NCBI GenBank assembly: GCA_964634355.1
Contig: CAZWIF010000001.1
Location: 1 to 50,389, forward strand
Reading direction: 5' to 3'
Source of the DNA: an uncultured Clostridium sp.
GTDB taxonomy: Bacteria; Bacillota; Clostridia; TANB77; CAG-508
DNA length: 50,389 nt
This document shows, in pieces, positions 12,456 through 37,723 of the stretch (its first letter is position 1; each line of letters begins with the position of its first letter). The notes under the pieces were generated by a model. It was given only the letters and a program-made list of their open reading frames with translations. It did no database searches and was not told where the DNA came from. The position numbers and the translations under genes are program-made.

Positions 12456-14574
12456 TGGCAGTTAACATAAAAAAAGTCAGAAGAGGTGTTGAAGCTCAAA
12501 AAACTTGGGGATATGATAATACGGATTCCCCATTGAGTTATGACCCTATTAATGAAGAAAAAATTGATTATGAAGAATGGACTAAATTTTTATCGTACTA
12601 TAGATATTATGTTGATGAATTTGCAGTCGATATTTTAGGAATGGATAATTTATTTCCATTTCAAAGATTATTATTAAGAGCAATGGGAAGATTCCCAAAC
12701 ATAATGTTTATTATGTGTAGAGGTAGACGTACTGTTATGCCCCTGATTTATGGTGACATAAATCTAAGCATCGGGCAAAATCGGTGAAGGCTAAAATTAT
12801 AATCGAGGAGATAAAATGAAATATATGACAAAGTAATATAGTAATAAAAGGTTATAATAATGTTAATACCGAGATAATTATCTAAATTAAAAAGTAGATA
12901 ATATTGTAACGCATAGAGATTGAAACTTTATAAAAAGAATATAATATCTCCACGAGTGTCCGACATCTTATACAAAGATGAAAATATATGCTAATCTGAA
13001 ATGGAATTGACCATTTAATGAAAATGAGGGAAACCTCCAGAGTGATAGATAAAAAGCTATCAGTTAAGAACATAATGTTAACCAAGTCTTATATTGCTGC
13101 AATATTCATTTGCTGTATGGCTATTTTATATCCAGGTATGGCGATAGGTATAGTATCTGGAAACGGTAATCAAGCAAGAATGGTTATTAAACAGAAAATA
13201 GAAGGAGAATTATGTAAGAACGAAAATATTAAAAGAGAAATTAAAAGTATAAAAACAGGTATGGACGATTGTGTCGTTACTTTTAAAAATGGAAGTTCTA
13301 TAAGAGCCTTTACATTAGGTAATAATCAAAAAGGTGATACCAGTAGAGGATTAAGATTTCAATTGATATTAGTTGATGAGGCGAGATTGGTTAAGACAGA
13401 AGTTTTAAAACAAGTTTTAGTACCAATGACAAAAACTCCAAGAACTAATGCGATAGATTTAAAAAAGAGATTCCCAGATGCACCTTATGAAGAAGGTCGT
13501 ATGGTTTATATTTCTTCTGCTTGGTTAAAAACTTGTGATTTATATCAAAGATTTTTAAATTTCTATAGTCAAATGATTGCGGGAGATAAAAATTATTTTG
13601 TTGCTAGTCTTGATTATAGAGTGGGTATAGATGCAGGATTATTTACAGAAGAAAATATGATGATAGAAAAAAATGACCCGGAAATGACTCTCGACAAGTG
13701 GGCTTACGAGTACGAAGGTCGATTTGTTGGTAGTGCAAATGATAGTTATTATCCTTATGATATAACTTCAAAATGTAGGTCATTAGATAGATGTGAATTA
13801 GAACAGCCTAAAAAATGTCAATATAGATATATAGTAACGCACGATGTAGCCGTATCTGGCAAATCAGGTTCGGATAATGCCTGTACTCATGTTATAAAAT
13901 TAATTCCTAGAAAAAATGGTACATTTACTAAACAAGTTGTTTTTACAAAGACAATGAATGGAGCAACATTAAAAGAGCAAAGAGATTTTTTAAGGGAACT
14001 TATTCATATTAGATTTCCTAATACAGATAAATTAGTAATAGATGCTCAATCTGCTGGGCAAGGTTTGTTATCTTTATTAGAAGAGCCTTGGACTGCGAGA
14101 AATAATAGGGGAGAAATAGAAGAATTTCCTCCGTTGATTTGTGACGATGATGAAGAAGCACAAATATTATTACCAGATGCAGAGCCCTTAATAAGAGGGA
14201 TAACTGCTACTCAAGAATTTAATAGCACTTTTTATCCATATATGAAAAGTGGATTTGAAGACAGGAGCTTACAATTATTAGTAGACAGCAGTGAAAAAGA
14301 TGAAGAATATAAGAGTGGAAAATATAGACCTGAAGAACAGTTAATTCATATTGAACACGATAGTTTAGTTCAAGAATTAAGTAACATAAAACAATCATAT
14401 TCTGAATATGGGAAGATAATTTATACTAGAATTGTTAAAAGTAAAAAGAGAGACCGTGTTACAAGTTTAATGTATGGTTTATCTGTTGTTTGGGAATATG
14501 AGAAACAAGGAAAAGCAGATATGTATAAAAAAGAGGTAGACCCTCTTTCATATTTAAAAAAATATATATATTAA
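12455..14574 (+). CDS. terL: Terminase large subunit, split gene: exon 1 12455-12724, exon 2 13078-14574 (588 aa after splicing)
   Basis: Exon 1 ends ...FIMCRG and exon 2 starts LTKSYIAAIF.... Joined, CRG|LTKSYIAAIF has the spacing of the T4 gp17 Walker A region SRQLGKTTVVAIF. Exon 2 carries Walker B LILVDEA and a nuclease-domain-like IVTHDVAVSG. Confidence 0.8.
12725..13077 (+). mobile_element. ORF-less intervening sequence in terL, probable group I intron (353 nt)
   Basis: The 5' exon ends in U (GGT at 12722-12724) and the insert ends in G (13077). Candidate P1 is AGAGGU / GCCCCU (12739-12744) with a terminal U.G pair. Candidate P7 is GGAGAT (about 12806) / ATCTCC (about 12945), the latter preceded by the J8/7-like AAGAATATAAT. 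Stops occur in all frames. Confidence 0.65.
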
Positions 14575-14594
14575 AGGAAGGTAGGTGAATAAGA

Positions 14595-16274
14595 TTGAGT
14601 AATAAAAAAGTTAAATCTGATGCAGAAATTAATTTAACAGAAAAGCAAGTTATAGAGGTTTTACAAGCGTATGATAAAGCTTTAGATATTAGAGACCGTC
14701 AAATTGCTAATGGAACTTTTGATGTAGAGGCATTTTCAAGGGGCATGAATGAGGTTGGTGCATTTACACCATATACGCAAAATGAAATAATGAAAAGAAT
14801 CAATATTGCTACAAATAATACACCAGATGGAAAAAAAATAGATAGTGCATTATCTAACCCGATTGAAAATGAAAATAATCTAGTTAATTATGGTCAATCT
14901 TATTATTTTAGTAGTTTAATGTATAAACGAAATCAAGAATATCTAGCAAACCTACCTGCGTTTGATTTAGAAATGTCTTGTGTAAACGCAAAACCAGAGG
15001 ACTACAAAACAAATAAATATAAAAATGATTATGAAGAAATTAAAAAATTTCTTAATTCATTTAATTATAGAGAACAATTTAAAAATGTTACTTGGAGCAT
15101 AGTAATGAATGAAACTTATTATGCAATGTTTAGAGAGTTGGGAGATAAATCTGTTATCCAAGAATTTCCAGCTTCATATTCTATGATTACTGGAAAATGG
15201 GAATATGGTTTATTATATGATATAGATATGAATTGGTTTCTTCAAGGTGAAGTAGACATTAATTGTTATCCTGATTGGATAATTAAAAAATATAAAGAAA
15301 TGTTTGATGGCAAAAAAGAAAAGCCATATATACCAAGTAATAAGATAAATAAAAGAACTGGCACTTTTGGACTATGGACTCAAACAGACCCAGCCAATGG
15401 ATGTTGGGTTTTTAAATTTAATCCAAATCATAGTTTACAAGTTCCATTTTTTTCTGGGTTATTACCAGAAATGGCTATACTTCCAACATTAAGAAATTTG
15501 CAAGTTAATCAAAGTATGGCAGCCGCAAGAAAACTATTGGTTTCATCAATTCCATATTTAAATGAAAAGAAAGCAGCTAGTGTTGCAAATCAGTTAGCAA
15601 TAGATGCAGATACCTTAGGTAAATTTATTGGACTTGCAACCAAAGGATTAGAAGCTGCAATTAAAGTTTTGGCTTTACCAACCGAAGATATTAAAGGTAT
15701 TGAATTTACAAATACCGATAGTGATACTTATGAAACATTTATGACTTTAACAAGCTCTTTATTGAGTGGTGGTAAAGTAATATTTTCAACAAGTGAGAAT
15801 CAAAATGCAATAGAGACTCAATTTTCTATTGATATAGATAGAATGTTAATTAAATCTATTTATCCTCAATTTGAAAATTTCTTAGAATATTATGCTAATA
15901 AGCACACTAAGAAGTTTAAATGGAAATTTAAATTTGTTGGAACTAATGATAAGTTTGATAGAGAAGCTAGACAAGAAGAGGCATTTAAGTATGCCGATAA
16001 AGGTGTTGTTCTTCCAAACAAAATTGCTTCATCTTTAGGAATGAACAAAATAGAGCTAGAAAGAGAATTGGAAGAAATGAACGCTAGTGATTTTATTGAA
16101 AAATTAAGACCTATGATTAATATTTATACTCAAGGTAATGTTACTGAAGGTGCAAAAACAAATTCAGATAATAACAACACTGGTAGACCAAAGTCTAAAG
16201 ACGAGGACTTAACAAATAGTGGTAGCGAAACTAGAGACAAAGGGTCAAATATAGAAAAAGGTGGAAATTTATAA
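14595..16274 (+). CDS. Portal protein (559 aa)
   Basis: Size and position directly after terL. TTG start after GGAAGGTAGGTGA. Confidence 0.6.
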   Translation: MSNKKVKSDAEINLTEKQVIEVLQAYDKALDIRDRQIANGTFDVEAFSRGMNEVGAFTPYTQNEIMKRINIATNNTPDGKKIDSALSNPIENENNLVNYGQSYYFSSLMYKRNQEYLANLPAFDLEMSCVNAKPEDYKTNKYKNDYEEIKKFLNSFNYREQFKNVTWSIVMNETYYAMFRELGDKSVIQEFPASYSMITGKWEYGLLYDIDMNWFLQGEVDINCYPDWIIKKYKEMFDGKKEKPYIPSNKINKRTGTFGLWTQTDPANGCWVFKFNPNHSLQVPFFSGLLPEMAILPTLRNLQVNQSMAAARKLLVSSIPYLNEKKAASVANQLAIDADTLGKFIGLATKGLEAAIKVLALPTEDIKGIEFTNTDSDTYETFMTLTSSLLSGGKVIFSTSENQNAIETQFSIDIDRMLIKSIYPQFENFLEYYANKHTKKFKWKFKFVGTNDKFDREARQEEAFKYADKGVVLPNKIASSLGMNKIELERELEEMNASDFIEKLRPMINIYTQGNVTEGAKTNSDNNNTGRPKSKDEDLTNSGSETRDKGSNIEKGGNL

Positions 16275-27598: not shown

Positions 27599-30500
27599 AT
27601 GGATTATAACATAAAATTAGGGATTCAATTAGATGAAAGTTCCATCACTAAAATAAAAACTGATTTAGATACTAAATTAAAAGATGAAAATTTTGAAGTT
27701 AGTTTTAGTTCAACAGGATTAGACGATGTTTCCAAAAAGCTAGATGAAATTAGCACTAAATTAGGAAATGTTTCTAAAGAAGACAGTTTTAATAAAACCT
27801 CTTCCGGTGCAAAAACAGCCTCTAAAGCAGTTGATACTTTAAATAGCAAATTAGAAAAGACTACCAAGCACATTAAGAATCAATCTTTTGCGACAGATAA
27901 TTGGACTTATAACTGGTCTAAAGCAATGCAATCATTCTTGACTTATAATACAGTAACTCAATTCTTTAATACAATAAGCAATGGTATTCAAGATATGATT
28001 ATGGAAGTTAAAGACCTCGATGATTCTTTAACTGAATTAAAGAAAGTAACTGACCTAGAAGGAGAATCCTTAGAAAATTTTGTTAGTGAGGCATACTCGG
28101 CGGGGCAAAATGTAGCTAAAACCGGAAAAGAAATGGTTGATTCGGCTACCTCATTTGCTAAAGCTGGATATGACGATAGTGAAATTTTAAAACTAGGTGA
28201 AGTTGCGGCTATGTATACAAACATCGCCGATGAAGAAATATCAACTGCTGATGCAGCTGATTTTATTATAGCTCAATTAAAAGCATTTAACTTAGAGGCT
28301 AGTGATACCAATGAAACATTAGAAAATTCATATCATATTATAGATGCTGTTAATGAGGTTTCAAATAACTTTGCTGTCAGTTCTTCTGATATAGCAACAA
28401 ATATGGGTAAGGCATCATCGGTAATGGCAAATGCAGGAAACTCAATGGAGCAAATGATTGGCTTAAATAATAGGTCAAGTAAAATAACCTTAATTGACGG
28501 GGAGTTCCTTAGAGATATTATAAACCAACCTATAACAGTAATGTATATAGGGGCTCTGACGTAATGGTCGAGGTATGGTAAAATATATAATATATTGGAT
28601 GACCCGCAGCTAAGCATCCTAAGAGTAAGGATGAAAGTTCAACGATTAGTAAGTCCATATAATTATGGCATAGGCTCAAATGAGCTGAAATGGGTTACAT
28701 TTATGAAACGAATCATAAATGAAGATATAATCTAATCTTATATGAAAATGTAAGGAGTTGTTTTATAATGTATAAAAATCAAAAAAAAACAAAAGAATTT
28801 ATTGAAAATTTTTTTAAAAATAGAGGATATTGTGTAGAGGAAGAATATATTAATTCATCTACTCCTATAAAAATAAAAGATAAAAATGGCTATATTTCCA
28901 AAATAACTTATAGTAATTTAAGAATGGGGGAAAAACCAACTTTTTTTGGAATTAATAATGAATTTTTAGAGGATAATGTCAAAACTCTTATAAAAAAAAC
29001 AAACAAAAATATTGTTTTTGAAAAATATGAAATTATTACTAAAAGTAAAAAAAAAAGAGTTTTAGTTTATATGCAGTGTGAATGTGGCAATCATTTTAAA
29101 AGAGTATTGGATGATATAAATAGAAAAGATAGAGGGTTATATTGTAATGAATGTGCCAAGAGAAAAAGAGGATTAAATCATAGAAAAGACAAAAACGAAA
29201 TGTTTAATAAAATAGAGTCCCTTGGATATAAGATATTAGATAAAAGTAAGCACTATTTGAGAAATGAATACATTGAAGTAATAAATCAAAGAGGATATAG
29301 AGGTTTTGTTAAATATAATTATTTGATGTCAGGGAAACATATGACTATATTTAATGAACATATTAATTTATCTAATTTTGTTTATAATGCTAATATATAT
29401 GCAAAAGAGAATAATATAAATTGTGAAGTATTAGAATTAAGTAAATTAAAAAAATGGAATAGACAGGGATTAAAAATAAAATGTGAATGTGGGAAATTAT
29501 TTGAAACATCTGTTGCTTCTTTTCAAAATGGAAAAATAAGATGTGACAAATGTTCAAACTCTATGTCAAAATTTGAATTTGCAGTCAAATCGTATTTAGA
29601 AGAGAGTAATATTAAATATATTAAAGAATTTTACTTTAATGACTGTAGAGATGTATTACCTTTACCTTTTGATTTTTATTTAGTAGACTTTGATAAAATT
29701 ATTGAGGTTGATGGACAAGGACATTATTATCCTGTTTCTTTTGGGGGAGATAAAGAACAAAATTTCATTATAACTAAAACCCATGATAAAATAAAAAATG
29801 ATTATTGTAGGGAAAAAAATATTCCATTACTTAGATTATCTTATAAAGATATTGAAAATGGAGAGTATATAAAAATTATAAAACAATTCATTGAAGATTA
29901 ATGACCTTCAATTAATATTATGTATTAACTGCTGGTACAGAAATTACAAGAAATGCAAGCAAGGTGGCAAATGGGCTTAAAACAATCACACTTCGCCTCC
30001 AAGAGAATTTTATAAACCCTTGGAATGTACAGAAATGTGCATTAAGAACAAGTTTAATTGCAGGTAATGCGTAAAGCTTCACACCGAAACAAAAAGATGA
30101 AATATGCTTAAGTGGAATGGTACGAAAGTAGAAAAAACGTGAAGATGATATATGGATGAAAATCCTAAGTATTGTAAACAATCGCTGTTCTTGCAGCCAA
30201 GTCTCGAATAGAGAAAGGCTCAACGACTATCCTTTAGACAGGCGAAAAATAAATATGTCAATAGGAGTAGGGCTCAAATCGTAAATGGAGTGGGTGAAAA
30301 TCCCTTAAATCGAAAAGGCTTGCCCTTAACAGGTAATGCTGAAGGTGATGAAATAGTCTGGACTTATGTGAAAGCATAAGAATATATAAAGTTATTAGGA
30401 AATAAGGGGAGAAAAAATGATTAGTCAAATAAAAAGAAATAATTAATAACTTTATATATTAGTGAATGTTGCGTATTCACTATAACAAAATCGGTATGAA

Positions 30501-33500
30501 TGACGAAGGAGAAGAAGACCTTGAGTTACAAGCCCAAATGGAAGAATTATTTAATAAATTAGGAGTATCTGTATATAATGCCAATGGAGAATTAAAAAAT
30601 ACTTATGATATATTAGATACTTTGGCACCTGTTTATGAAAATTTAACAGCTGCCGAGAAAAGTTATGTAACAGAAACAATTGCAGGTTGACTTATACTAG
30701 CCTGACCTTATGGAAACATAAGGGTTAAGAACGAATTTAACTGCTGGGAACTCGTGAAGATAAGTAAGCTACAACATAATTGGAAACGATAAGTGTGAAT
30801 GCGAAAAAATTACTTATTATATGATAATCAGCAACCAAGCTCCGTTATAGGAGAAGGCTCAACGACTATCCCAAATGGGAGTACACTCAAGTGAGTGGAA
30901 AAGGTTCGCATCTATAGATAGATGAAAATATAGTCTAGGCTTATGTGAAAATATAAGAAAGGATATTTAAGATGAAATTAAAATTAATAGAAGAAAAAGA
31001 TATAAATGGGGTAAAACAAAAAGCAAAATATATTGACGAAGAAGGATACTTATATAATTTAGATAATTTAAATAAATCAAAAGGAAGATTTTCAAGATTC
31101 AATCCTTATACTATAGAGAACATACATAATTATATAAAAATTAATAATATTTCTACAAAATTAATAAGCGATACTTTTAATTATGCGGCGAAAAATTGTC
31201 ATTTAACTTTTCAATGTGGTATGTGTCATAAAAATTTTGAGAGAACATGGAATAATTTTTATAAAGGCAAATATAAATATTGTCAAGATTGTATAATTAA
31301 AATACAAGCTAAAGAAAAATATTTTACAATAGACGAAGTAAAGGAAAAATGTTTAAAAAAAGGCTTTAAAGTTATACAAGAGGAATATTATGGAAATCGA
31401 GAGCCATTAGATGTTGAAGATAAAGATGGATATAGAGGAAGAACAACTTGGAATGAAATAAAAAATGGGAAACATTTTATTAAATTTAGGATTCAAAACC
31501 CTTATTTTTATTATAATGTAAGAAATTATTTCAAAATTAATAATTATAATTGTGATATAGTAGAAAATAGTGGAGAAGAACGAAAAAGCAAGTTTAAATT
31601 TATATGTGAGTGTGGAAAAGAGTATATTTCAACATTAGATGAAGTTCTCAATAATACCAAGCCTAGAATTAGATGTAAAGCCTGTTCAAATTCTATTTCT
31701 AATGGTGAAAAGGCTATTATGGATTGGCTTGATAAGAATAAAATAGAATATATATATCAATATAAATTTAATGATTGTAGAAATATAAAACCTTTGCCAT
31801 TCGACTTTTTTTTGCCTAAATTTAATATATGTATAGAATTTGACGGACAGTATCATTTTGAGAGGCAGGCTCATACAACTGAAAAGCAATTTGAATATCA
31901 AAAAATGAGAGACAATATTAAAACTGAATATTGCAAAAATAATGAAATAAAATTAATTAGAATTCCTTATTGGAATTTATATAATAAAAAATATAAGAAT
32001 ATATTGAAACAAAATATCCTTATGTAAAATTAACGACTTTACATTTACTTTACGAAATACCAAGCCCAGAACGCTGCTGCCATACTTTCCAATTGGTCAA
32101 CAGCTGTTGAAGCAACAACAACTGCACTAAACAGTAATGGCAGTGCTGCAGAAGAAAATGCCAAAGTTATGGATTCTGTTCAAGGTCATTTGCAGAAATT
32201 GCAAAGTTCCTGGTCTGAATTTGCAAATAGTATATTTAATTCAGGTATTTTAAAATTATTTATTGATATAGGAAACGCAATGTTAAGTTTTGCTAATATC
32301 AAATTGCCAGGATTAGATACATCTATTGCTAAAATTACAATTCTAGCCGGAGCGATAAAATTATTAACGCCAGCATTAATTGAACTTAAAAATAAAATTA
32401 TGGCTACTACAGATAGCTTAAGTAAAAATTCTATTCAAATGTTAATGAATACGGAAGCTATTGAAGCTTGTGATAAAGCTACTAAGAAACAAATATTAAG
32501 TTTGTTAAGTGCTAAAGGTGCTTACAATAAAAACAACGATTCTTTAAGTAAAAACACAAAAGCTGCTATAAAGAATACTTTAATAAAATCCGGTATGTCT
32601 AAAGCGGATGCTAAAGTTGCTGTTGCGACAATTGCTGAGACTAGTGCCACCAAAGGATTAACCGCTGCTACTTGGGGACAAGTTGCCGCACAGAAAGCTT
32701 TACAAGCTGCAAAATCAATGAGTTTATCTTTATTGGCATCTGCAGCGATTGAAGGGGCAATTAAACTTGTTTCTAAATTAATAGAGGTCTATAAAGAAGG
32801 TCATAAGACTGCCGAGGAAGTATATAATGATGCAAAAGAAGAGTATGATGAAATTCAAACCGAATTAGACGATATAAATAGTCAATTAGAAGAAACAGCT
32901 AATAGAATAGATGAGTTGAATAGTGAAGATAGCTTGTCTTTTATAGAGAAAAGTGAACTTGATAAGCTAAAGGATACAACTAAAGAGCTGATTAAACAAC
33001 AAAAACTTCTTAAAGAGAAAGAGGAAAAAGCACAAAAAGAGAAAGAAAAAGCAGCAGATGCGGCAGCTGAATCTGATTTAAATAGCAACGTCAAATATAA
33101 AACTACAAAAAAATATGTTAAAGATACTTCCTTCTTAACTAATTTTAATAAAAATAATTTGATACCATCCAGTGATAATACATTAAATTTTAATTATCAA
33201 ACAAAAGAATTAGAAACTTATCTTAGTGCATTAGAGGAATTAAAAAATAAGTATAAGGATAATAAAGATTTAGTAAGTCAAATAGATGCTGAAATTAATA
33301 GGGTAAAAACCGATTCAAATGCTACAAACGATGTAGAGGTAAATGTATCAACATCTTTAAAAAAAGCTGCTGAAACTAATGTTAAATCTTATCAAGACTA
33401 TACAAAACAGATAGAAGAAAATAAAAATAAAATAAAAGAATATCAAAAACAAGTTGAAGAGTATGAAGAAAAAAATCCTCTCGTTAAGCAATCAGAAACA

Positions 33501-36500
33501 TTGGGTATGACGCCTCAATTTGAGGTTGGTAGCCAAGAGTCGCAAGACTATTTTGGTTATAAAGCGGCACAAGAACAAATAAAAAAACTACAAGAGGAAC
33601 AAGATAATTTAAATAAAAAAAGAACAACTGCAAAAGATAATTTAAAAGATGAACAAACAGCTTATGAAAATATTTTAACTAATGAAGAATATCGAAATGA
33701 TTTGTCTGATGAAGAATTACAGAAATTATATGAACAATATGAATTGATTTTAAAAATATCCGACCCAAATAAATATAAAGATATGAAATTTACAGATTTT
33801 ATGAGTGACGATGACAATAAAGATGCTGCAAATCAGTTATTAAGTTTAAAAGATGCCGGAAAAGTTACTGCTAAACAAATTAAGGAATTAGCTAAAGAAT
33901 TTCCTGAATTTAATAATTATTTAACCAATACAGATACATCGGCACAGGAGGCGGCTGACCAATTAAATAGTATGACTGGTGAAACTGAGGCATTATTAAA
34001 AGCTCAAATAGAGTCTGTTGATTCTTGGTCTGATACTATGTCAAATCTCCAATCGCAATATGACACTTTAACATCGGCTGTAGATGAATATAATAATAGT
34101 GGTTATATTAGTGGCTCAACGATGAAAAGTCTGGTAGATAGTGGTGTATTACAATATTTAGAATGGGAAAATGGACAATTAGTCGCCAACACAGGTGCTC
34201 TTTATGATAATGCAGATGCTGCAAAAATACTTGCATTAACTGAATTACAAACTGCGTATGCTAAAGATGTTCTTGCTATTACAACCGGTGATTTAACAGA
34301 CGCATCAGAAACAGCAAAAAACATTATTAAAGGCGAGAAGGATGAAATGGATGGCTTAGGAGATATTGCCAAGGCACAAGCTAAAGGATTATTCACTCTT
34401 GCGACAGCCGAAGCTGCTGCTGGTGACCCTGAGGCTGTTGCAGCTAAAGCCGAACAAATTAATAAATTAAATGATGCTTATAATAATATGGCTAAAACCA
34501 TGACCGAATTTGATTATAGCAGTGCAAGAGTAACTAGATATTCAGGTTCTAGTGACTCATCTGGTTCCAGCTCATCATCATCATCTTCAAAAGAATGGTG
34601 GGAAGAAGAACTAGACAACCTCAAAGACCAATTTGATTATAGTGAAATAACTATAAATGAATATATAAATGGACTTCAAGCTTTATTAAATAAGACTGAA
34701 GAGGGTTCAGAAGCTTGGAAGAAAATCAATAAAGAGCTTCAAAAGCAACGTCTCGATAAAGTTAAAGATGACTATGATGCCGGAAGAATCTCATTGACAC
34801 AATATATTAACGAACTTAAAAATTTACAAAAGGCATATAAAGCAGGAACAGACGCTTGGAATGATTTAGCAGATGCAATAAAAGATGCACAGCTGGATTT
34901 ATTAAAAGAACAACAATCTGATTTAGAGGCAGCATTATCTGCTGTTAACAATTTATTAGATGACCAAATAGATAAATATGAGGAAGCTAAAGATGCTGCT
35001 GATGAAAAATATGATGACGAAATAGAAAAACTTGAGGATTTACAAGAAGAGCTTGAAGAACAAGATGACAATTATCAAAGAGCACAACAGGCTGTTCTTG
35101 ATTATTTAAATGAACAACTAGACGCATTAAATGAACAAAAAGATTCAGTAGAAGAATATTATGATACTGTTATAGATGCTATAGAGAAGATGAATGAAGA
35201 ACAGTCTGAATCTATAGAATTAGCAGAGGCTTATGAATCATTGATGAACGCAATGACACAAAAGTCGAAGAAGGTAAAATATATGCTTTCTATAAAGATA
35301 GCTCAAAACGGGGAAACTCCTGAGAAGGACAATCCCGTGGGTAAGATTTATTTTAAATATATTATAATGAAAGGAGTAGAATTATGGCTAGTGGTAAAAG
35401 ATACACTATCGAAGAATTTAAAAATAAATTATTTAAAATAAAATCCCGTAACGACCACAGAGATATAGGTAACTATACTCGTATGCTATCCTTTCACTAA
35501 ATGTGATTGAAGGTATGGTCTGAACTGCAAATATAATCTAAAAAATGAAATTGCAGAGTTAGGTTTAACGACCTAACCGCCACATTGTGTGGTCAGTAAT
35601 CTATAAGATGAAAGTAACAGAGTTTGATATAAAGAAGGACTCGGTAAAAAGTTAGCCGAGTATAAAGATAACTATATCGGTCAAATGCTAGAAGTAGTAC
35701 AGACCGAGGTAAGATTGAATTTAAGGAGGTGCGTTTATGGGTAAAACAAAAAAAAAGACGCATCAAGAATTTTTAAAAGAAATGAAAATAAAACATCCAA
35801 ATTTAGAAATTACAGGTATTTACTATAATTCGTCAAGTAGAATTTCTTATATTTGTAAAAAATGTGGTTTGCATTGGAGTGCTAAAGCTGCAAAATTAAG
35901 CTTAGGCAGAGGATGTCCCAAGTGTGCAGGAAATAAGAGAAAAACTACCGAAGAATTTATTAAAGAAGTAAATAAGATAAATCCCAATATTAAAGTTTTA
36001 AGTGAATATAAAAGCACTTCTAATAAAGTGCTTTTTAAATGCAAGAAATGTGGGTATGAGTGGGAAACTTTTCCTGGTGGTGTATTAAGGGGAAAAGGAT
36101 GTATGATTTGCGGAAAAAAAAGTATGGGAGATAAATTAAGAAAATCTCATAAAGATTTTGCGAATGAAATTTCCTTAATTAATAATAATATAGAATTGAC
36201 AAGTGAATATCGAGGACAGAAAGAAAAAATATGGTGTCAATGCAAGAAATGTCGATATGAGTGGGAAACTTTTCCTACTACATTGTTAGCAGGACATGGA
36301 TGTCCTAACTGTTCCTTATCTAAAGGAGAAGAACAAATTTCAATAATTCTAAATAAATATAATTTACTATATGAAACTCAAAAAAAATTCTCAGGTTTAA
36401 TTGGAGTTGGAGGAAATCAATTATCTTATGATTTTTATATTCCAGAATTAAATCTTTTAATTGAATATCAAGGGAAACAACATAAAAGACCTATAGAATA

Positions 36501-37723
36501 TTTTGGTGGAGTAAAAACTTTTGAAAGACAAAAAATACACGATAAATTAAAAAGGAATTATGCAATTTCAAATAATTTTAATTTTTTAGAAATTTGGTAT
36601 TATGATAATTTACAAGAAAAATTAGAAAAGACCTTAGATTCAATAACCGTAACGACTGCAGGATATTAGTGGTAACATTAATATTGAAGTTATCACCTTA
36701 TTTACCCTATAAGGCAATATACAGTCTGGACTATGAATATAACAAAATGAAATCATAGAATTAGGCTTAACGACCTAATCGCCACAAATAAAAGTGGTCA
36801 GTAACCTATAAGGTGAAAGTAACAGTTCGTGGATTTGGACTACCGATGCCGAAGCTATAGCTGATGCTAAAAAGACTTATGAGGATTTGCTTACAAGTGC
36901 TACAACAAAAGAAATAGAAGAACAAAAAGATGCTACTATAAATTCATTAGAAGACCAAATAGAGGCATTACAAGAGTATATAGATTCTTGGGACGATGTA
37001 CTTAATAAATTTGATAATGAAAAAAATAGAAATTTAGCCGATTTATTACTTGGTGAAAATTGGACTGAAATGGTCTCCCAATTAGACCCACAAGTAGTAG
37101 AGGACTTTTCTGACGCTTATTATGAGCTTCAAAAGAATCTCGATGAAACAGAGAAACAAATAGAAGAATTAAATAAGCAAAAAGAAGAGGAAGATGAATA
37201 TTGGGATAAACTAATTGAAGATTTAGAAACTTATCAAGAAAAGTGGGATGAAGTATCAGATGCTTATGAAGAAGCTCAAGATGCTTTAAAAGCTGCTCAA
37301 ATAATAGGTGCAAATTGGGAAAAAGATATTCTTGACCAAAGACTTGATGTATTAGAAAACTTTAAAAATAAGTATAATGCAATACTTGCCGAAATTGATA
37401 AAGTTGATAATATGTCTACGGATGAAGCATCTAGTTATACAGCATTAAGATTACCTGGTTATGCTAATGGTGGTGAAATTGATTATACTGGTCTTGCAGT
37501 ATTACATGGAACACCAAATAAACCAGAATATGTTCTTAATAACACTCAAATGAGAAATTTACTAAGTAATCTTATCAAGCCAAAATTTACTTCTAATACA
37601 GCAACAGGTTCTTCAGTTACAAATAATTATAATTTTGGTAATATTGAATTACCAAATGTTACAAATGCAAGACAATTTGCTAACGAATTAAAATCTTTAT
37701 TAAATATAACTAAAAATCAATAA
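27599..37723 (+). CDS. Tail tape-measure protein (TP901/TIGR01760-like core), split gene. Exons: 27599-28463, 29923-29998 (or to 30003), 30495 (or 30494)-30687, 32055-35275, 36826-37723. Conceptual product is about 1750 aa.
   Basis: The joined exons read ...NAGNSMEQMIG|LLTAGTEITRNASKVANGLKTITLRL(Q)|(G)MNDEGEEDLELQ...YVTETIAG|KYQAQNAAAILSNWSTAVEATT...MTQKSKKV|SWIWTTDAEAIADAKK...GYANGGEIDYTG. This is a continuous canonical tape-measure core. Exon lengths sum to a multiple of 3 (5253 or 5259 nt). Confidence 0.85.
28464..29922 (+). mobile_element. Group I intron 1 (1459 nt, lineage A) carrying a homing endonuclease ORF
   Basis: P1 is UUGGCU (28458-28463) / GGUCAA (28473-28478) with U.G at the splice site. 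R element GTTCAACGATTAGT at 28637-28650. S element AAGATATAATCT at 28722-28733. P7 is GATT/AATC. A terminal 7-bp hairpin ATTGAAG/CTTCAAT is followed by 10 nt ending in G29922. Confidence 0.8.
28768..29901 (+). CDS. Intron-encoded homing endonuclease: Zn-ribbon (CxC...CxxC) repeats plus C-terminal DUF559/Vsr-like PD-(D/E)XK nuclease domain (377 aa)
   Basis: Own RBS AAGGAG. CECGNHF...CNEC and CECGKLF...CDKC modules. C-terminal FEFAVKSYLEESNIKYIKEF...LPFDFYLVDFDKIIEVDGQGH matches the DUF559 pattern E..l..L...F..Q....DF.......iE.DG..H. Confidence 0.7.
   Translation: MYKNQKKTKEFIENFFKNRGYCVEEEYINSSTPIKIKDKNGYISKITYSNLRMGEKPTFFGINNEFLEDNVKTLIKKTNKNIVFEKYEIITKSKKKRVLVYMQCECGNHFKRVLDDINRKDRGLYCNECAKRKRGLNHRKDKNEMFNKIESLGYKILDKSKHYLRNEYIEVINQRGYRGFVKYNYLMSGKHMTIFNEHINLSNFVYNANIYAKENNINCEVLELSKLKKWNRQGLKIKCECGKLFETSVASFQNGKIRCDKCSNSMSKFEFAVKSYLEESNIKYIKEFYFNDCRDVLPLPFDFYLVDFDKIIEVDGQGHYYPVSFGGDKEQNFIITKTHDKIKNDYCREKNIPLLRLSYKDIENGEYIKIIKQFIED
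29999..30494 (+). mobile_element. Group I intron 2 (about 490-496 nt, lineage A), ORF-deleted derivative. Ends are uncertain by about 5 nt.
   Basis: R element GGCTCAACGACTATCC (30217-30232) is identical to intron 3. S element GATGAAATAGTCTGG at 30347-30361. P2 hairpin AATGTACA-GAAA-TGTGCATT at 30024-30043. Relic RBS AAGGGGAG plus ATG at 30417 encodes only MISQIKRNN. Terminal hairpin AGTGAAT/ATTCACT. Confidence 0.65.
30688..32054 (+). mobile_element. Group I intron 3 (1367 nt, lineage A) carrying a homing endonuclease ORF
   Basis: P1 is CAGGU (30683-30687) / GCCUG (30700-30704) with a terminal U.G. P2 is CCTTATG-GAAA-CATAAGG (30706-30723). R at 30856-30871. S AAAATATAGTCT at 30925-30936. P7 is GACT/AGTC. 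The terminal hairpin ATGTAAA/TTTACAT is followed by 10 nt ending in G32054. Confidence 0.8.
30972..32027 (+). CDS. Intron-encoded homing endonuclease, paralogue of 28768-29901 (351 aa)
   Basis: Same architecture: CGMCHKNF...CQDC and CECGKEY...CKAC, with C-terminal GEKAIMDWLDKNKIEYIYQYKF...LPFDFFLPKFNICIEFDGQYH. Confidence 0.7.
   Translation: MKLKLIEEKDINGVKQKAKYIDEEGYLYNLDNLNKSKGRFSRFNPYTIENIHNYIKINNISTKLISDTFNYAAKNCHLTFQCGMCHKNFERTWNNFYKGKYKYCQDCIIKIQAKEKYFTIDEVKEKCLKKGFKVIQEEYYGNREPLDVEDKDGYRGRTTWNEIKNGKHFIKFRIQNPYFYYNVRNYFKINNYNCDIVENSGEERKSKFKFICECGKEYISTLDEVLNNTKPRIRCKACSNSISNGEKAIMDWLDKNKIEYIYQYKFNDCRNIKPLPFDFFLPKFNICIEFDGQYHFERQAHTTEKQFEYQKMRDNIKTEYCKNNEIKLIRIPYWNLYNKKYKNILKQNILM
35276..35620 (+). 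mobile_element. Group I intron 4a (345 nt, lineage B), ORF-deleted
   Basis: P1 is GAAGGU (35270-35275) / GCUUUC (35285-35290) with a 9-nt loop. P7 is GACC (35453-35456) / GGTC (35517-35520). The 3' 100 nt are roughly 80% identical by eye to intron 4b and end ...GAAAGTAACAG. A relic ORF at 35384-35500 starts MASGKRYTIEEFKNKLFKIKS, compared with MGKTKKKTHQEFLKEMKIKHP in 4b. Confidence 0.7.
35646..36825 (+). mobile_element. Group I intron 4b (1180 nt, lineage B) carrying a homing endonuclease ORF
   Basis: P1 is CUCGGU (35640-35645) / GCCGAG (35655-35660): five Watson-Crick pairs plus a terminal U.G, with a 9-nt loop. P7 is GACT (36654-36657) / AGTC (36723-36726). P8 is GTGGTAAC/GTTATCAC. P9-type hairpins are CTATGA/TCATAG, TTAGG/CCTAA and CCAC/GTGG. 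It ends at G36825. Confidence 0.8.
35737..36669 (+). CDS. Intron-encoded homing endonuclease, three CxxC...CxxC Zn-ribbon repeats plus DUF559/Vsr-like nuclease (310 aa)
   Basis: Strong RBS AAGGAGG. Repeats CKKCGLHW...CPKC, CKKCGYEW...CMIC and CKKCRYEW...CPNC. C-terminal GEEQISIILNKYNLLYETQKKF...SYDFYIPELNLLIEYQGKQH. The last codons overlap the P7 5' strand. Confidence 0.75.
   Translation: MGKTKKKTHQEFLKEMKIKHPNLEITGIYYNSSSRISYICKKCGLHWSAKAAKLSLGRGCPKCAGNKRKTTEEFIKEVNKINPNIKVLSEYKSTSNKVLFKCKKCGYEWETFPGGVLRGKGCMICGKKSMGDKLRKSHKDFANEISLINNNIELTSEYRGQKEKIWCQCKKCRYEWETFPTTLLAGHGCPNCSLSKGEEQISIILNKYNLLYETQKKFSGLIGVGGNQLSYDFYIPELNLLIEYQGKQHKRPIEYFGGVKTFERQKIHDKLKRNYAISNNFNFLEIWYYDNLQEKLEKTLDSITVTTAGY

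Follow-up and report, generated by a model that had tools for sequence, protein, structure and literature searches.

Five group I introns in a phage tape-measure gene, three of them encoding predicted zinc-ribbon, Vsr-like homing endonucleases

The DNA analyzed here, referred to throughout as the window, is the 50,389-nt stretch spanning positions 1 to 50,389 of the forward strand of contig CAZWIF010000001.1 (assembly GCA_964634355.1, uncultured Clostridium sp.). It is phage DNA of low GC content (≈30%). Between positions 27599 and 37723, open reading frame (ORF) fragments resembling a tail tape-measure protein are interspersed with three unrelated ORFs, which encode 377, 351, and 310 aa. This region is a single phage tail tape-measure gene split by five group I introns, three of which carry the unrelated ORFs, here named HE1, HE2, and HE3 for the homing endonucleases they are predicted to encode. 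Splice sites were set from P1 pairing, the terminal G of each intron, and comparison with homologues, using a set of 19 related IMG/VR contigs. The six exons, with splice junctions marked by ^ here and below, are as follows.

27599..28463, forward strand: exon 1, with PHROG tape-measure matches; its junction GGCT^TATTAACT is colinear with intron-less alleles
29923..30003, forward strand: exon 2, 81 nt, from homologue comparison and intron-less alleles
30494..30687, forward strand: exon 3, 194 nt, from a PHROG match, homologue comparison, and intron-less alleles
32055..35275, forward strand: exon 4, from homologue comparison, the spliced frame, and intron-less alleles
35627..35645, forward strand: exon 5, a 19-nt micro-exon (A TAT AAA GAA GGA CTC GGT) needed for the reading frame
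36830..37723, forward strand: exon 6, the 3' end of the tape-measure gene, from comparison with homologues and intron-less alleles

Joined together, these exons total 5274 nt and give a 1757-aa frame with zero internal stops. The uninterrupted protein of Enterocloster phage CB473P1 aligns with this product from end to end and covers every junction, with readings that include IGL^LTAG, RLQG^MNDEGE, TIAG^KYQAQ, and VYKEGLG^WIW. All five junctions are also gap-free when compared with intron-less alleles, which occur in at least 10 of the IMG/VR relatives. Support for the micro-exon comes from relatives L003 and L008, which are without intron 4b and continue straight through ATATAAAGAAGGTCTTGGT^TGGATTTGG. 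P10 of intron 4a can be formed with the first bases of this exon, and P1 of intron 4b uses the last 7. Introns 4a and 4b lie only 19 nt apart, and in an intron-less allele the target of either endonuclease would include the insertion point of the other intron.

The intervening sequences are group I introns of two lineages, A and B, each with a core supported by covariation, and they are predicted to splice in vivo.

28464..29922, forward strand: intron 1, 1459 nt, lineage A; P7 GATTA/TAATC at 28644-28648 / 28728-32; P9 at 28737-28754; terminal 7-bp hairpin at 29890-29912
30004..30493, forward strand: intron 2, 490 nt, lineage A, without an endonuclease; P7 GACTA/TAGTC; P9 at 30363-30380; terminal hairpin at 30460-30482
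30688..32054, forward strand: intron 3, 1367 nt, lineage A; P1 CAGGU/GCCUG; P2 with a GAAA loop; P7 GACTA/TAGTC; P9 at 30940-30957; terminal hairpin at 32022-32044
35276..35626, forward strand: intron 4a, 351 nt, lineage B, endonuclease deleted; P3 at 35297-35302 / 35485-35490; P4-P5 at 35308-35338; P6 at 35339-35349 / 35441-35447; J6/7-P7 at 35448-35457; P7' at 35516-35520
35646..36829, forward strand: intron 4b, 1184 nt, lineage B; P1 ACUCGGU/GCCGAGU; P3 at 35667-72 / 36689-94; P4-P5 at 35678-35706; P6 at 35708-17 / 36641-48 with the ORF in its loop; P7 GACUG/CAGUC at 36654-58 / 36722-26, followed by P9, P9.1, and P9.2

Lineage A is IA2-like and comprises P1, P3, P4, an extended P5, a short P6, a P7 formed by the R and S elements, P7.1, P7.2, P3', P8, and P9, together with a GAAA-looped P2 in introns 2 and 3. 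P9 (CUUAUR...YRUAAG) is followed by the ORF and then by a 7-8-bp hairpin ≈10 nt before the terminal G. A compensatory change is apparent in P7: introns 2 and 3 have GACUA/UAGUC where intron 1 has GAUUA/UAAUC. RNAalifold analysis of introns 1 and 3 and the intron-1 homologue of relative L021 recovered P3, P6, P7.2, P8, P9, and the terminal hairpin as covarying helices, and 25 pairs in these three sequences stay paired despite changes on both sides; covariation in P4 and P7 was judged by hand from only 3-5 sequences. The P7-P9 core of intron 2 is 76% identical over 171 nt (84-86% over ≈105 nt) to that of a Staphylococcus Twortvirinae endolysin intron.

Lineage B, which includes introns 4a and 4b as well as relatives in L003/L008, L006, L021, and L014, is compact: P1, P3 (GAUARC/GYUAUC), P4, P5, a P6 that encloses the ORF, J6/7 (GUAAC), P7, a single P7.1 hairpin, P3', P8, P7', P9, P9.1, and P9.2. 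P2 is missing from 4a and 4b and present as a hairpin in the lineage-B introns of L021 and L014. The four-base loop of P5 is GAGA in 4a and GAAG in 4b, and P7 takes the form GACCA/UGGUC or GACUG/CAGUC. Across six sequences, the 65 pairs of the model, including the P3-P7 pseudoknot, are 97.2% paired, compared with 33-41% in slid controls, and 30 of these pairs show changes on both sides; none of 500 shuffles attained the observed covariation score. Because MAFFT misaligns P4-P5 between 4a-type and 4b/4c-type introns, P4 in this lineage is argued by hand only. Three other assignments were rejected on the basis of RNAalifold and pair counting: GGTTTAACGACCTAA as the R element (it is the P9.1 hairpin), GACCAC/GTGGTC as P7 (which is GACCA/TGGTC), and ATATC/GATAT as P3 (which is GAUARC/GYUAUC). 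The lineage A and B cores differ in their helix sets and give no blastn cross-matches or detectable nucleotide similarity to one another, which bears out the proposal, made in an earlier note on the window, that two distinct ribozyme scaffolds are present.

A terminal G is found in all five introns, and the U.G pair of P1 in introns 1, 3, 4a, and 4b; intron 1, for example, has U at -1 and G at its 3' end. Intron 2 is inserted between the two Gs of CAAGGTATG (30003/30004; 30493/30494), and the last exon base, G, pairs with C in P1, in place of the near-universal U.G pair. In the intron-2 homologue of L021 (9052/9053), this G-C pair is kept while P1 shows a compensatory change, the two introns having CCAAG/CUUGG and UCAGG/CCUGG. 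Alternative sites that keep U at -1 (after CGCCU, giving LRL-MNDEGE) were rejected because they would delete the QG of the intron-less alleles and leave no P1 pairing.

The proteins encoded within introns 1, 3, and 4b, together with their C-terminal domains, are located as follows.

28768..29901, forward strand: HE1, 377 aa, in intron 1 (lineage A); two zinc ribbons and a Vsr-like domain
29560..29898, forward strand: HE1 nuclease domain, Vsr/DUF559-like by motif and family alignment
30972..32027, forward strand: HE2, 351 aa, in intron 3 (lineage A); two zinc ribbons and a Vsr-like domain
31692..32024, forward strand: HE2 nuclease domain; Pfam DUF559 at 17.1 bits (cut-off 20.6) and PvuRts1I_N at 17.6 bits
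35737..36669, forward strand: HE3, 310 aa, in intron 4b (lineage B); three DUF4379/CapR-type ribbons and a Vsr-like domain
36313..36666, forward strand: HE3 nuclease domain, the part modeled by AlphaFold2, with Foldseek matches in the PDB and BFVD

These three proteins belong to one family. In BLASTP comparisons, HE1 and HE2 share 31% identity over 357 aa (E 2e-43), HE1 and HE3 33% over 132 aa (E 9e-11), and HE2 and HE3 29% over 156 aa (E 1e-11), and each matches PHROG 559 over ≈290 residues (E 1e-52 to 3e-73). All are built from cysteine ribbons, which occur in HE1 at C104xC106...C126xxC129 and C239xC241...C259xxC262, in HE2 at C82xxC85...C104xxC107 and C212xC214...C235xxC238, and in HE3 at residues 40-63, 102-125, and 167-192. 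The repeated segments of HE1, HE2, and HE3 are matched by a profile built from the family's ribbon and nuclease, which has no other match in the window. Above threshold, Pfam identifies three copies of DUF4379 (1.8e-22) and CapR (9.3e-13) in HE3; the ribbons of HE1 and HE2 are diverged and fall below the Pfam thresholds for DUF4379 and CapR. PHROG 559 bears the label "HNH endonuclease," yet Pfam finds no HNH signature in HE1-HE3, and searches of Pfam and PHROG gave no HNH, GIY-YIG, or LAGLIDADG signal in any of the three.

For the C-terminal domain, of ≈115 aa, a word-indexed search found 167 homologues at E ≤ 1e-3, several of which are named "very-short-patch-repair endonuclease" by JGI, and these homologues carry DUF723, DUF4379, and CapR. 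Among the residues identical in HE1-HE3 are E6, L13, Y20, F26, L37, D40, F41, I50, E51, G54, H57, K74, D77, and K80. Across a 91-sequence family alignment, F41, E51, G54, H57, D77, and K80 do not vary, and conservation of D40 and D53 is 90% or more, giving the pattern F-D-F...I-E-x-D-G-x-x-H...D-x-x-K. The acidic, histidine, and lysine residues D40, E51, H57, D77, and K80 are thus conserved as sequence positions. Residue 245 of HE3 (≈36469-36471), at the D53 position, is Q, and the L021 and L003 enzymes likewise have Q or N there.

An AlphaFold2 model of the HE3 domain, built on the 91 sequences, has a predicted local distance difference test score of 94. Its best Foldseek match in the PDB is Vsr (1vsr, E 4.9e-3, probability 1.0; 1cw0_A, template modeling score 0.61, root mean square deviation 2.8 Å over 105 columns), followed by RAP-domain proteins and the Vsr-like nuclease domains of AbaSI and PvuRts1I. 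In BFVD, the model has 166 viral matches at E ≤ 1e-3, among them proteins annotated as homing endonuclease, group I intron protein, VSR endonuclease, DUF559, and DUF2726. Profile comparison with hhalign aligns the family with E. coli YcjD, a DUF559 protein, at E 1.7e-4, placing IEfDGxQH on VELDGGQH. Sub-threshold Pfam matches of the 91 members are solely to PD-(D/E)XK families (DUF5889, DUF2726, PvuRts1I_N, DUF559, and RAP), with weak DUF559 matches in 10 of the 91 and weak RAP matches in 5; an NCBIfam search returned only noise. Judged by predicted fold and motif, the domain is Vsr/DUF559-like, a sequence outlier rather than a member of the Pfam DUF559 or Vsr families.

The earlier note, made from the nucleotide sequence, had placed the three intron ORFs in one family and read their C-terminal block as a DUF559/Vsr-like nuclease signature, not LAGLIDADG, GIY-YIG, or HNH. 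The BLASTP, ribbon, and PHROG 559 results confirm the family, and the Vsr match of the model together with the YcjD alignment supports the nuclease type. The block itself is real and contains invariant columns; its spacing had been given only approximately, with E and L separated by six residues, not four. A Pfam assignment at threshold was not obtained: the best DUF559 score, that of HE2, remains under the cut-off, and the weak matches all lead to PD-(D/E)XK families. The I-Bth0305I-type family, also named there for comparison, does not appear, there being no profile match to 3R3P among PDB sequences at E ≤ 10 and no such entry in the top 50 Foldseek matches.

The two lineages house these ORFs in different places, as the earlier note had described. 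In introns 1 and 3 of lineage A, the last base of P9 is at 28754 and 30957, respectively, and the ATG codons follow 13-14 nt on, at 28768 and 30972. The HE1 stop (29899-29901) lies in the loop of the covarying terminal hairpin at 29890-29912 and the HE2 stop (32025-32027) in the 5' strand of the hairpin at 32022-32044; both lineage-A introns of L021 likewise have the ORF after P9 and the stop in the terminal hairpin. AAGGAG, which serves HE1 as Shine-Dalgarno sequence, shares bases with the 3' strand of P9 (28749-28757), so ribozyme folding would occlude translation of the endonuclease, an effect already known from some intron ORFs of T4. In lineage B, the ORF had been placed upstream of R with its last codons on P7, which is correct and can now be refined: HE3 constitutes the loop of P6, and its codons overlap P6' (36641-36648) and J6/7-P7 (36649-36658), the last 10 codons and the stop (36667-36669) running through P6', J6/7, and P7 into P7.1. 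The same overlap is seen in the L021 lineage-B intron; in the L003 version of intron 4a, the ORF finishes before P6'.

Comparison with relatives indicates that the introns come and go. Presence/absence polymorphism occurs at every intron site, and introns 1-3 are missing in most relatives. L021 and L020 have endonuclease-bearing introns at sites 1 and 2 and are without introns 3 and 4a. The L021 site-1 intron is 75% identical to intron 1 and its endonuclease 50% identical to HE1; the site-2 ribozyme, 80% identical to intron 2, contains an intact 356-aa endonuclease. These two relatives also carry a lineage-B intron (13778-14748 in L021) 5 nt downstream of the 4b site; the 240-aa enzyme that it encodes has 46% identity to HE3. 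Intron 4b is missing from L008/L003 and L006, whose intron 4a encodes a 351-aa endonuclease. In all, three insertion positions of lineage B fall within 24 nt of the conserved VYKEGLGWIW motif, after AAGGT (4a), after CTCGGT (4b), and, 5 nt further, after GGATGGGT (L021/L014), each with a matching internal guide sequence.

The two introns without an endonuclease, which the earlier note had placed at the deletion stage of the homing cycle, can be related to these longer counterparts. For 4a that reading is shown directly: the intron equals the L008 intron (14182-15536) minus one 1003-nt deletion, with flanks identical at 153 of 154 and 107 of 110 positions and short AT-rich similarity at the deletion ends. 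It retains the ribosome-binding site and first 17 codons of the lost endonuclease, now part of a 38-codon frame (35384-35500) whose later codons derive from downstream intron sequence. Intron 2 keeps a remnant ribosome-binding site and 9 codons at 30417-30446 and is probably a deletion derivative as well, given the 356-aa endonuclease of its L021 counterpart. A second, independent decay event is recorded in L014 (13735-14161), in which a lineage-B intron contains an endonuclease deleted internally in frame to ≈18 N-terminal and ≈40 C-terminal codons.

We next considered how one nuclease family came to reside in two ribozymes. The endonucleases cluster by intron lineage: identity is 28-33% over the full length within lineage A and 39-46% within lineage B, and between lineages mostly only the last ribbon and the nuclease domain align (29-38%). 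The endolysin intron of vB_SurM-PSU5 (L001 2502-3273) has the same P7-P9 core as intron 2 and an HNH_3/NUMOD ORF upstream of P7, so nucleases of two unrelated families have colonized a single ribozyme lineage, each at its own position. The terminase intron of Staphylococcus phage Terranova (L026 2340-3500) has its HE3 homologue (36% identity) inserted after the 5' strand of P7, GCCGAACGACTA, and before the 3' strand, GATATAGTCTA, a third insertion position for zinc-ribbon, Vsr-like endonucleases. The family extends to ORF194 of phage 0305phi8-36 (L027 14861-15373), a 170-aa "homing nuclease" with a single Cys ribbon and the family motif LDRYYP...FEMNGRQH; its annotation is that of a gene in its own right, flanked on both sides by hypothetical ORFs.

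Since the family occupies two unrelated scaffolds at different places, the nuclease gene would have joined each ribozyme separately, and the data are read most simply as independent capture by two ribozymes. The earlier note had proposed such independent invasions; the clustering by lineage, the HNH/NUMOD gene of PSU5, and the position in Terranova strengthen that proposal, though the number of events is one that we infer. A single ancient association of endonuclease and intron, with later relocation of the ORF or recombination of an ORF-plus-flank cassette into the second ribozyme, would account for the last ribbon and nuclease being common to all endonucleases as one unit. Recombination is physically possible with both lineages in the same gene, and the tracking of ribozyme lineages by endonuclease clades implies that each association is old. 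We nevertheless find it unlikely, as the ORF flanks and cores of the two lineages share no nucleotide similarity and the structural contexts, after P9 and in the P6 loop, differ. That the family is also found at a third position, in a terminase intron from Staphylococcus, within group II introns (PMC12350094), and as apparently free-standing genes such as ORF194, makes repeated independent capture simpler than a single association.

Two further explanations concern the proteins and the gene rather than their history. It is decidedly improbable that the C-terminal domain is not a DNA endonuclease and acts instead as an RNA-binding or maturase-like folding aid, comparable to the eukaryotic RAP domain with its Vsr-like fold, or persists as an inactive relic. 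That idea draws on the RAP-domain mitoribosomal proteins among the top structural matches, the weak Pfam RAP matches noted above, and the replacement of a near-invariant Asp by Q or N in lineage-B proteins. It conflicts with the retention of D40, E51, H57, D77, and K80 in HE1-HE3 and the 91 homologues at positions that align with DUF559 motifs. Moreover, ORFs have been deleted while the ribozyme persists, as expected of a selfish nuclease and not of a needed maturase, and the gene that contains the ORF-less introns 2 and 4a is intact in other respects. Least credible of all, with almost no probability, is an arrangement of free-standing endonuclease genes between separately translated tape-measure fragments without splicing. 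The lack of an Rfam group I hit and the existence of apparently free-standing family members would accord with it, but the intervening sequences fold as covarying group I cores, two of them contain no gene, exons of 19 and 81 nt cannot be independent genes, and precise excision restores a single frame colinear with uninterrupted homologues.

We therefore return to a tape-measure gene with five mobile group I introns, three of which encode one family of zinc-ribbon, Vsr-like homing endonucleases that was captured separately by two ribozymes and has decayed in two introns, and assign this reading a probability of roughly 85%. Several results weigh against it. None of the five introns matches Rfam RF00028 (Intron_gpI) at gathering score or at E ≤ 10; this negative is uninformative and carries little weight because the annotated Staphylococcus phage endolysin and terminase introns, used as controls, are also unmatched at E ≤ 10. 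The insensitivity of the Rfam model means that automated scans will overlook such phage introns. With no U.G in the P1 of intron 2, the efficiency of its splicing is uncertain. On the protein side, no Pfam nuclease family reaches gathering score for HE1-HE3 or their relatives, phmmer and profile searches of PDB sequences returned nothing relevant, the Foldseek E-values against the PDB are modest (≈5e-3), and hhalign of the family profile with E. coli Vsr is not significant (E 0.44), with the register as expected. Lineage-B enzymes have Q or N in the IE-x-[D]-G-x-x-H motif, compared with Asp in at least 90% of the family and in HE1 and HE2. Finally, our literature search found no published cleavage data for any family member, HE1-HE3 included.

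In the proposed mechanism, the N-terminal zinc ribbons, which are CapR/DUF4379-type treble-clef modules, would presumably recognize the intron-less target DNA, and the C-terminal Vsr/DUF559-like PD-(D/E)XK domain would cleave it. During mixed infection, the enzyme would cut an intron-less tape-measure allele, and recombinational repair would copy the intron into the cut allele. Self-excision of the ribozyme from the mRNA would allow the 1757-aa protein still to be produced. Deletion of the endonuclease, as in introns 2 and 4a, represents the decay phase of the homing cycle. The locus would then offer an internally controlled example of this cycle, in which a single gene combines putatively active copies of two lineages with others that were deleted recently or decayed earlier, one nuclease family serving them all.

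A more tentative suggestion, which we consider possible but on balance doubtful, is that zinc-ribbon, Vsr-like enzymes make up a biochemically uncharacterized class in which the ribbons set specificity in modular fashion and are easily re-assorted, and that one intron splices after a G-C pair. Fitting with modular specificity, the present gene and those of its relatives contain paralogues at six or more sites, of which three fall within 24 nt, and ribbon number ranges from 2 to 4 among them. Were it true, these loci would record rapid retargeting of one nuclease chassis. Paralogues with known, closely spaced targets and natural intron-less alleles would form a convenient set for learning how ribbons read DNA.

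Precedents exist for several of these features. In T4, the td and nrdB introns have their ORF in the P6 region and sunY/nrdD has it 3' of the core, so that P6-loop and post-P9 ORFs, as well as overlap of ORF ends with helices, all have T4 counterparts; the T4 enzymes are GIY-YIG or HNH proteins, not Vsr-like. The Twortvirinae endolysin intron of vB_SurM-PSU5 differs from the lineage found in the window in having HNH_3/NUMOD upstream of P7 rather than a Vsr-like enzyme downstream of P9. Among Bacillus cereus-group prophages, tape-measure genes contain group I introns IVS1-3 of the IA1/IA2 type (Tourasse and Kolsto 2008, PMC2504315). That system resembles the present one in having several introns per tape-measure gene, P1 adapted to different sites, and endonuclease genes that are often partly deleted; it differs in having up to three introns compared with the five here, two of them 19 nt apart, and the type of endonuclease is not discussed there.

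I-Bth0305I, encoded in the recA group I intron of Bacillus phage 0305phi8-36 (PDB 3R3P; PMC3239194), is the EDxHD prototype. Like HE1-HE3, it is an intron-encoded phage enzyme with a C-terminal Vsr-like domain, and the Asp-His spacing is 17 (D40-H57 compared with D196-H213). It differs in its NUMOD/HTH N-terminal modules, where HE1-HE3 have zinc ribbons, and in an ORF that interrupts P5. Judged from sequence searches and fold matches, HE1-HE3 are not close to I-Bth0305I, lacking the NUMOD/HTH modules and the close Vsr-like domain that define the EDxHD family. For a direct comparison, recA was sought in NC_009760 between 100 and 150 kb and was not found.

The closest parallels are recent. A 2025 study in NAR (PMC12350094) described proteins with 3-5 CapR/DUF4379/DUF723-like domains and an EDxHD/Vsr-like domain as a large, unrecognized outgroup of Vsr-type homing endonucleases, with one family found in different intron types, including group II introns, and a survey of Bastillevirinae introns (PMC11878797) reported intron-encoded PHROG 559 proteins with a VSR signature, located in terminase introns. 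HE3 homologues occur in 790 GenBank phage records, including Twort ORF097, and the Terranova gene is annotated in GenBank as "group I intron-associated VSR homing endonuclease," a name for which our literature search on the phrase "VSR homing endonuclease" found no paper. The family, its relationship to Vsr, its presence in different scaffolds, and multi-intron tape-measure genes are thus already published or annotated, and current understanding is unchanged. HE1-HE3 share with the CapR/DUF4379 and Vsr-like family an architecture of several ≈60-aa zinc-ribbon modules followed by a Vsr-like domain of ≈100 aa. They differ from the proteins of PMC12350094 in that the ribbons of HE1 and HE2 have diverged, both scaffolds are group I, and the host is a tape-measure gene, which adds such genes to the hosts of CapR/DUF4379 and Vsr-like endonucleases.

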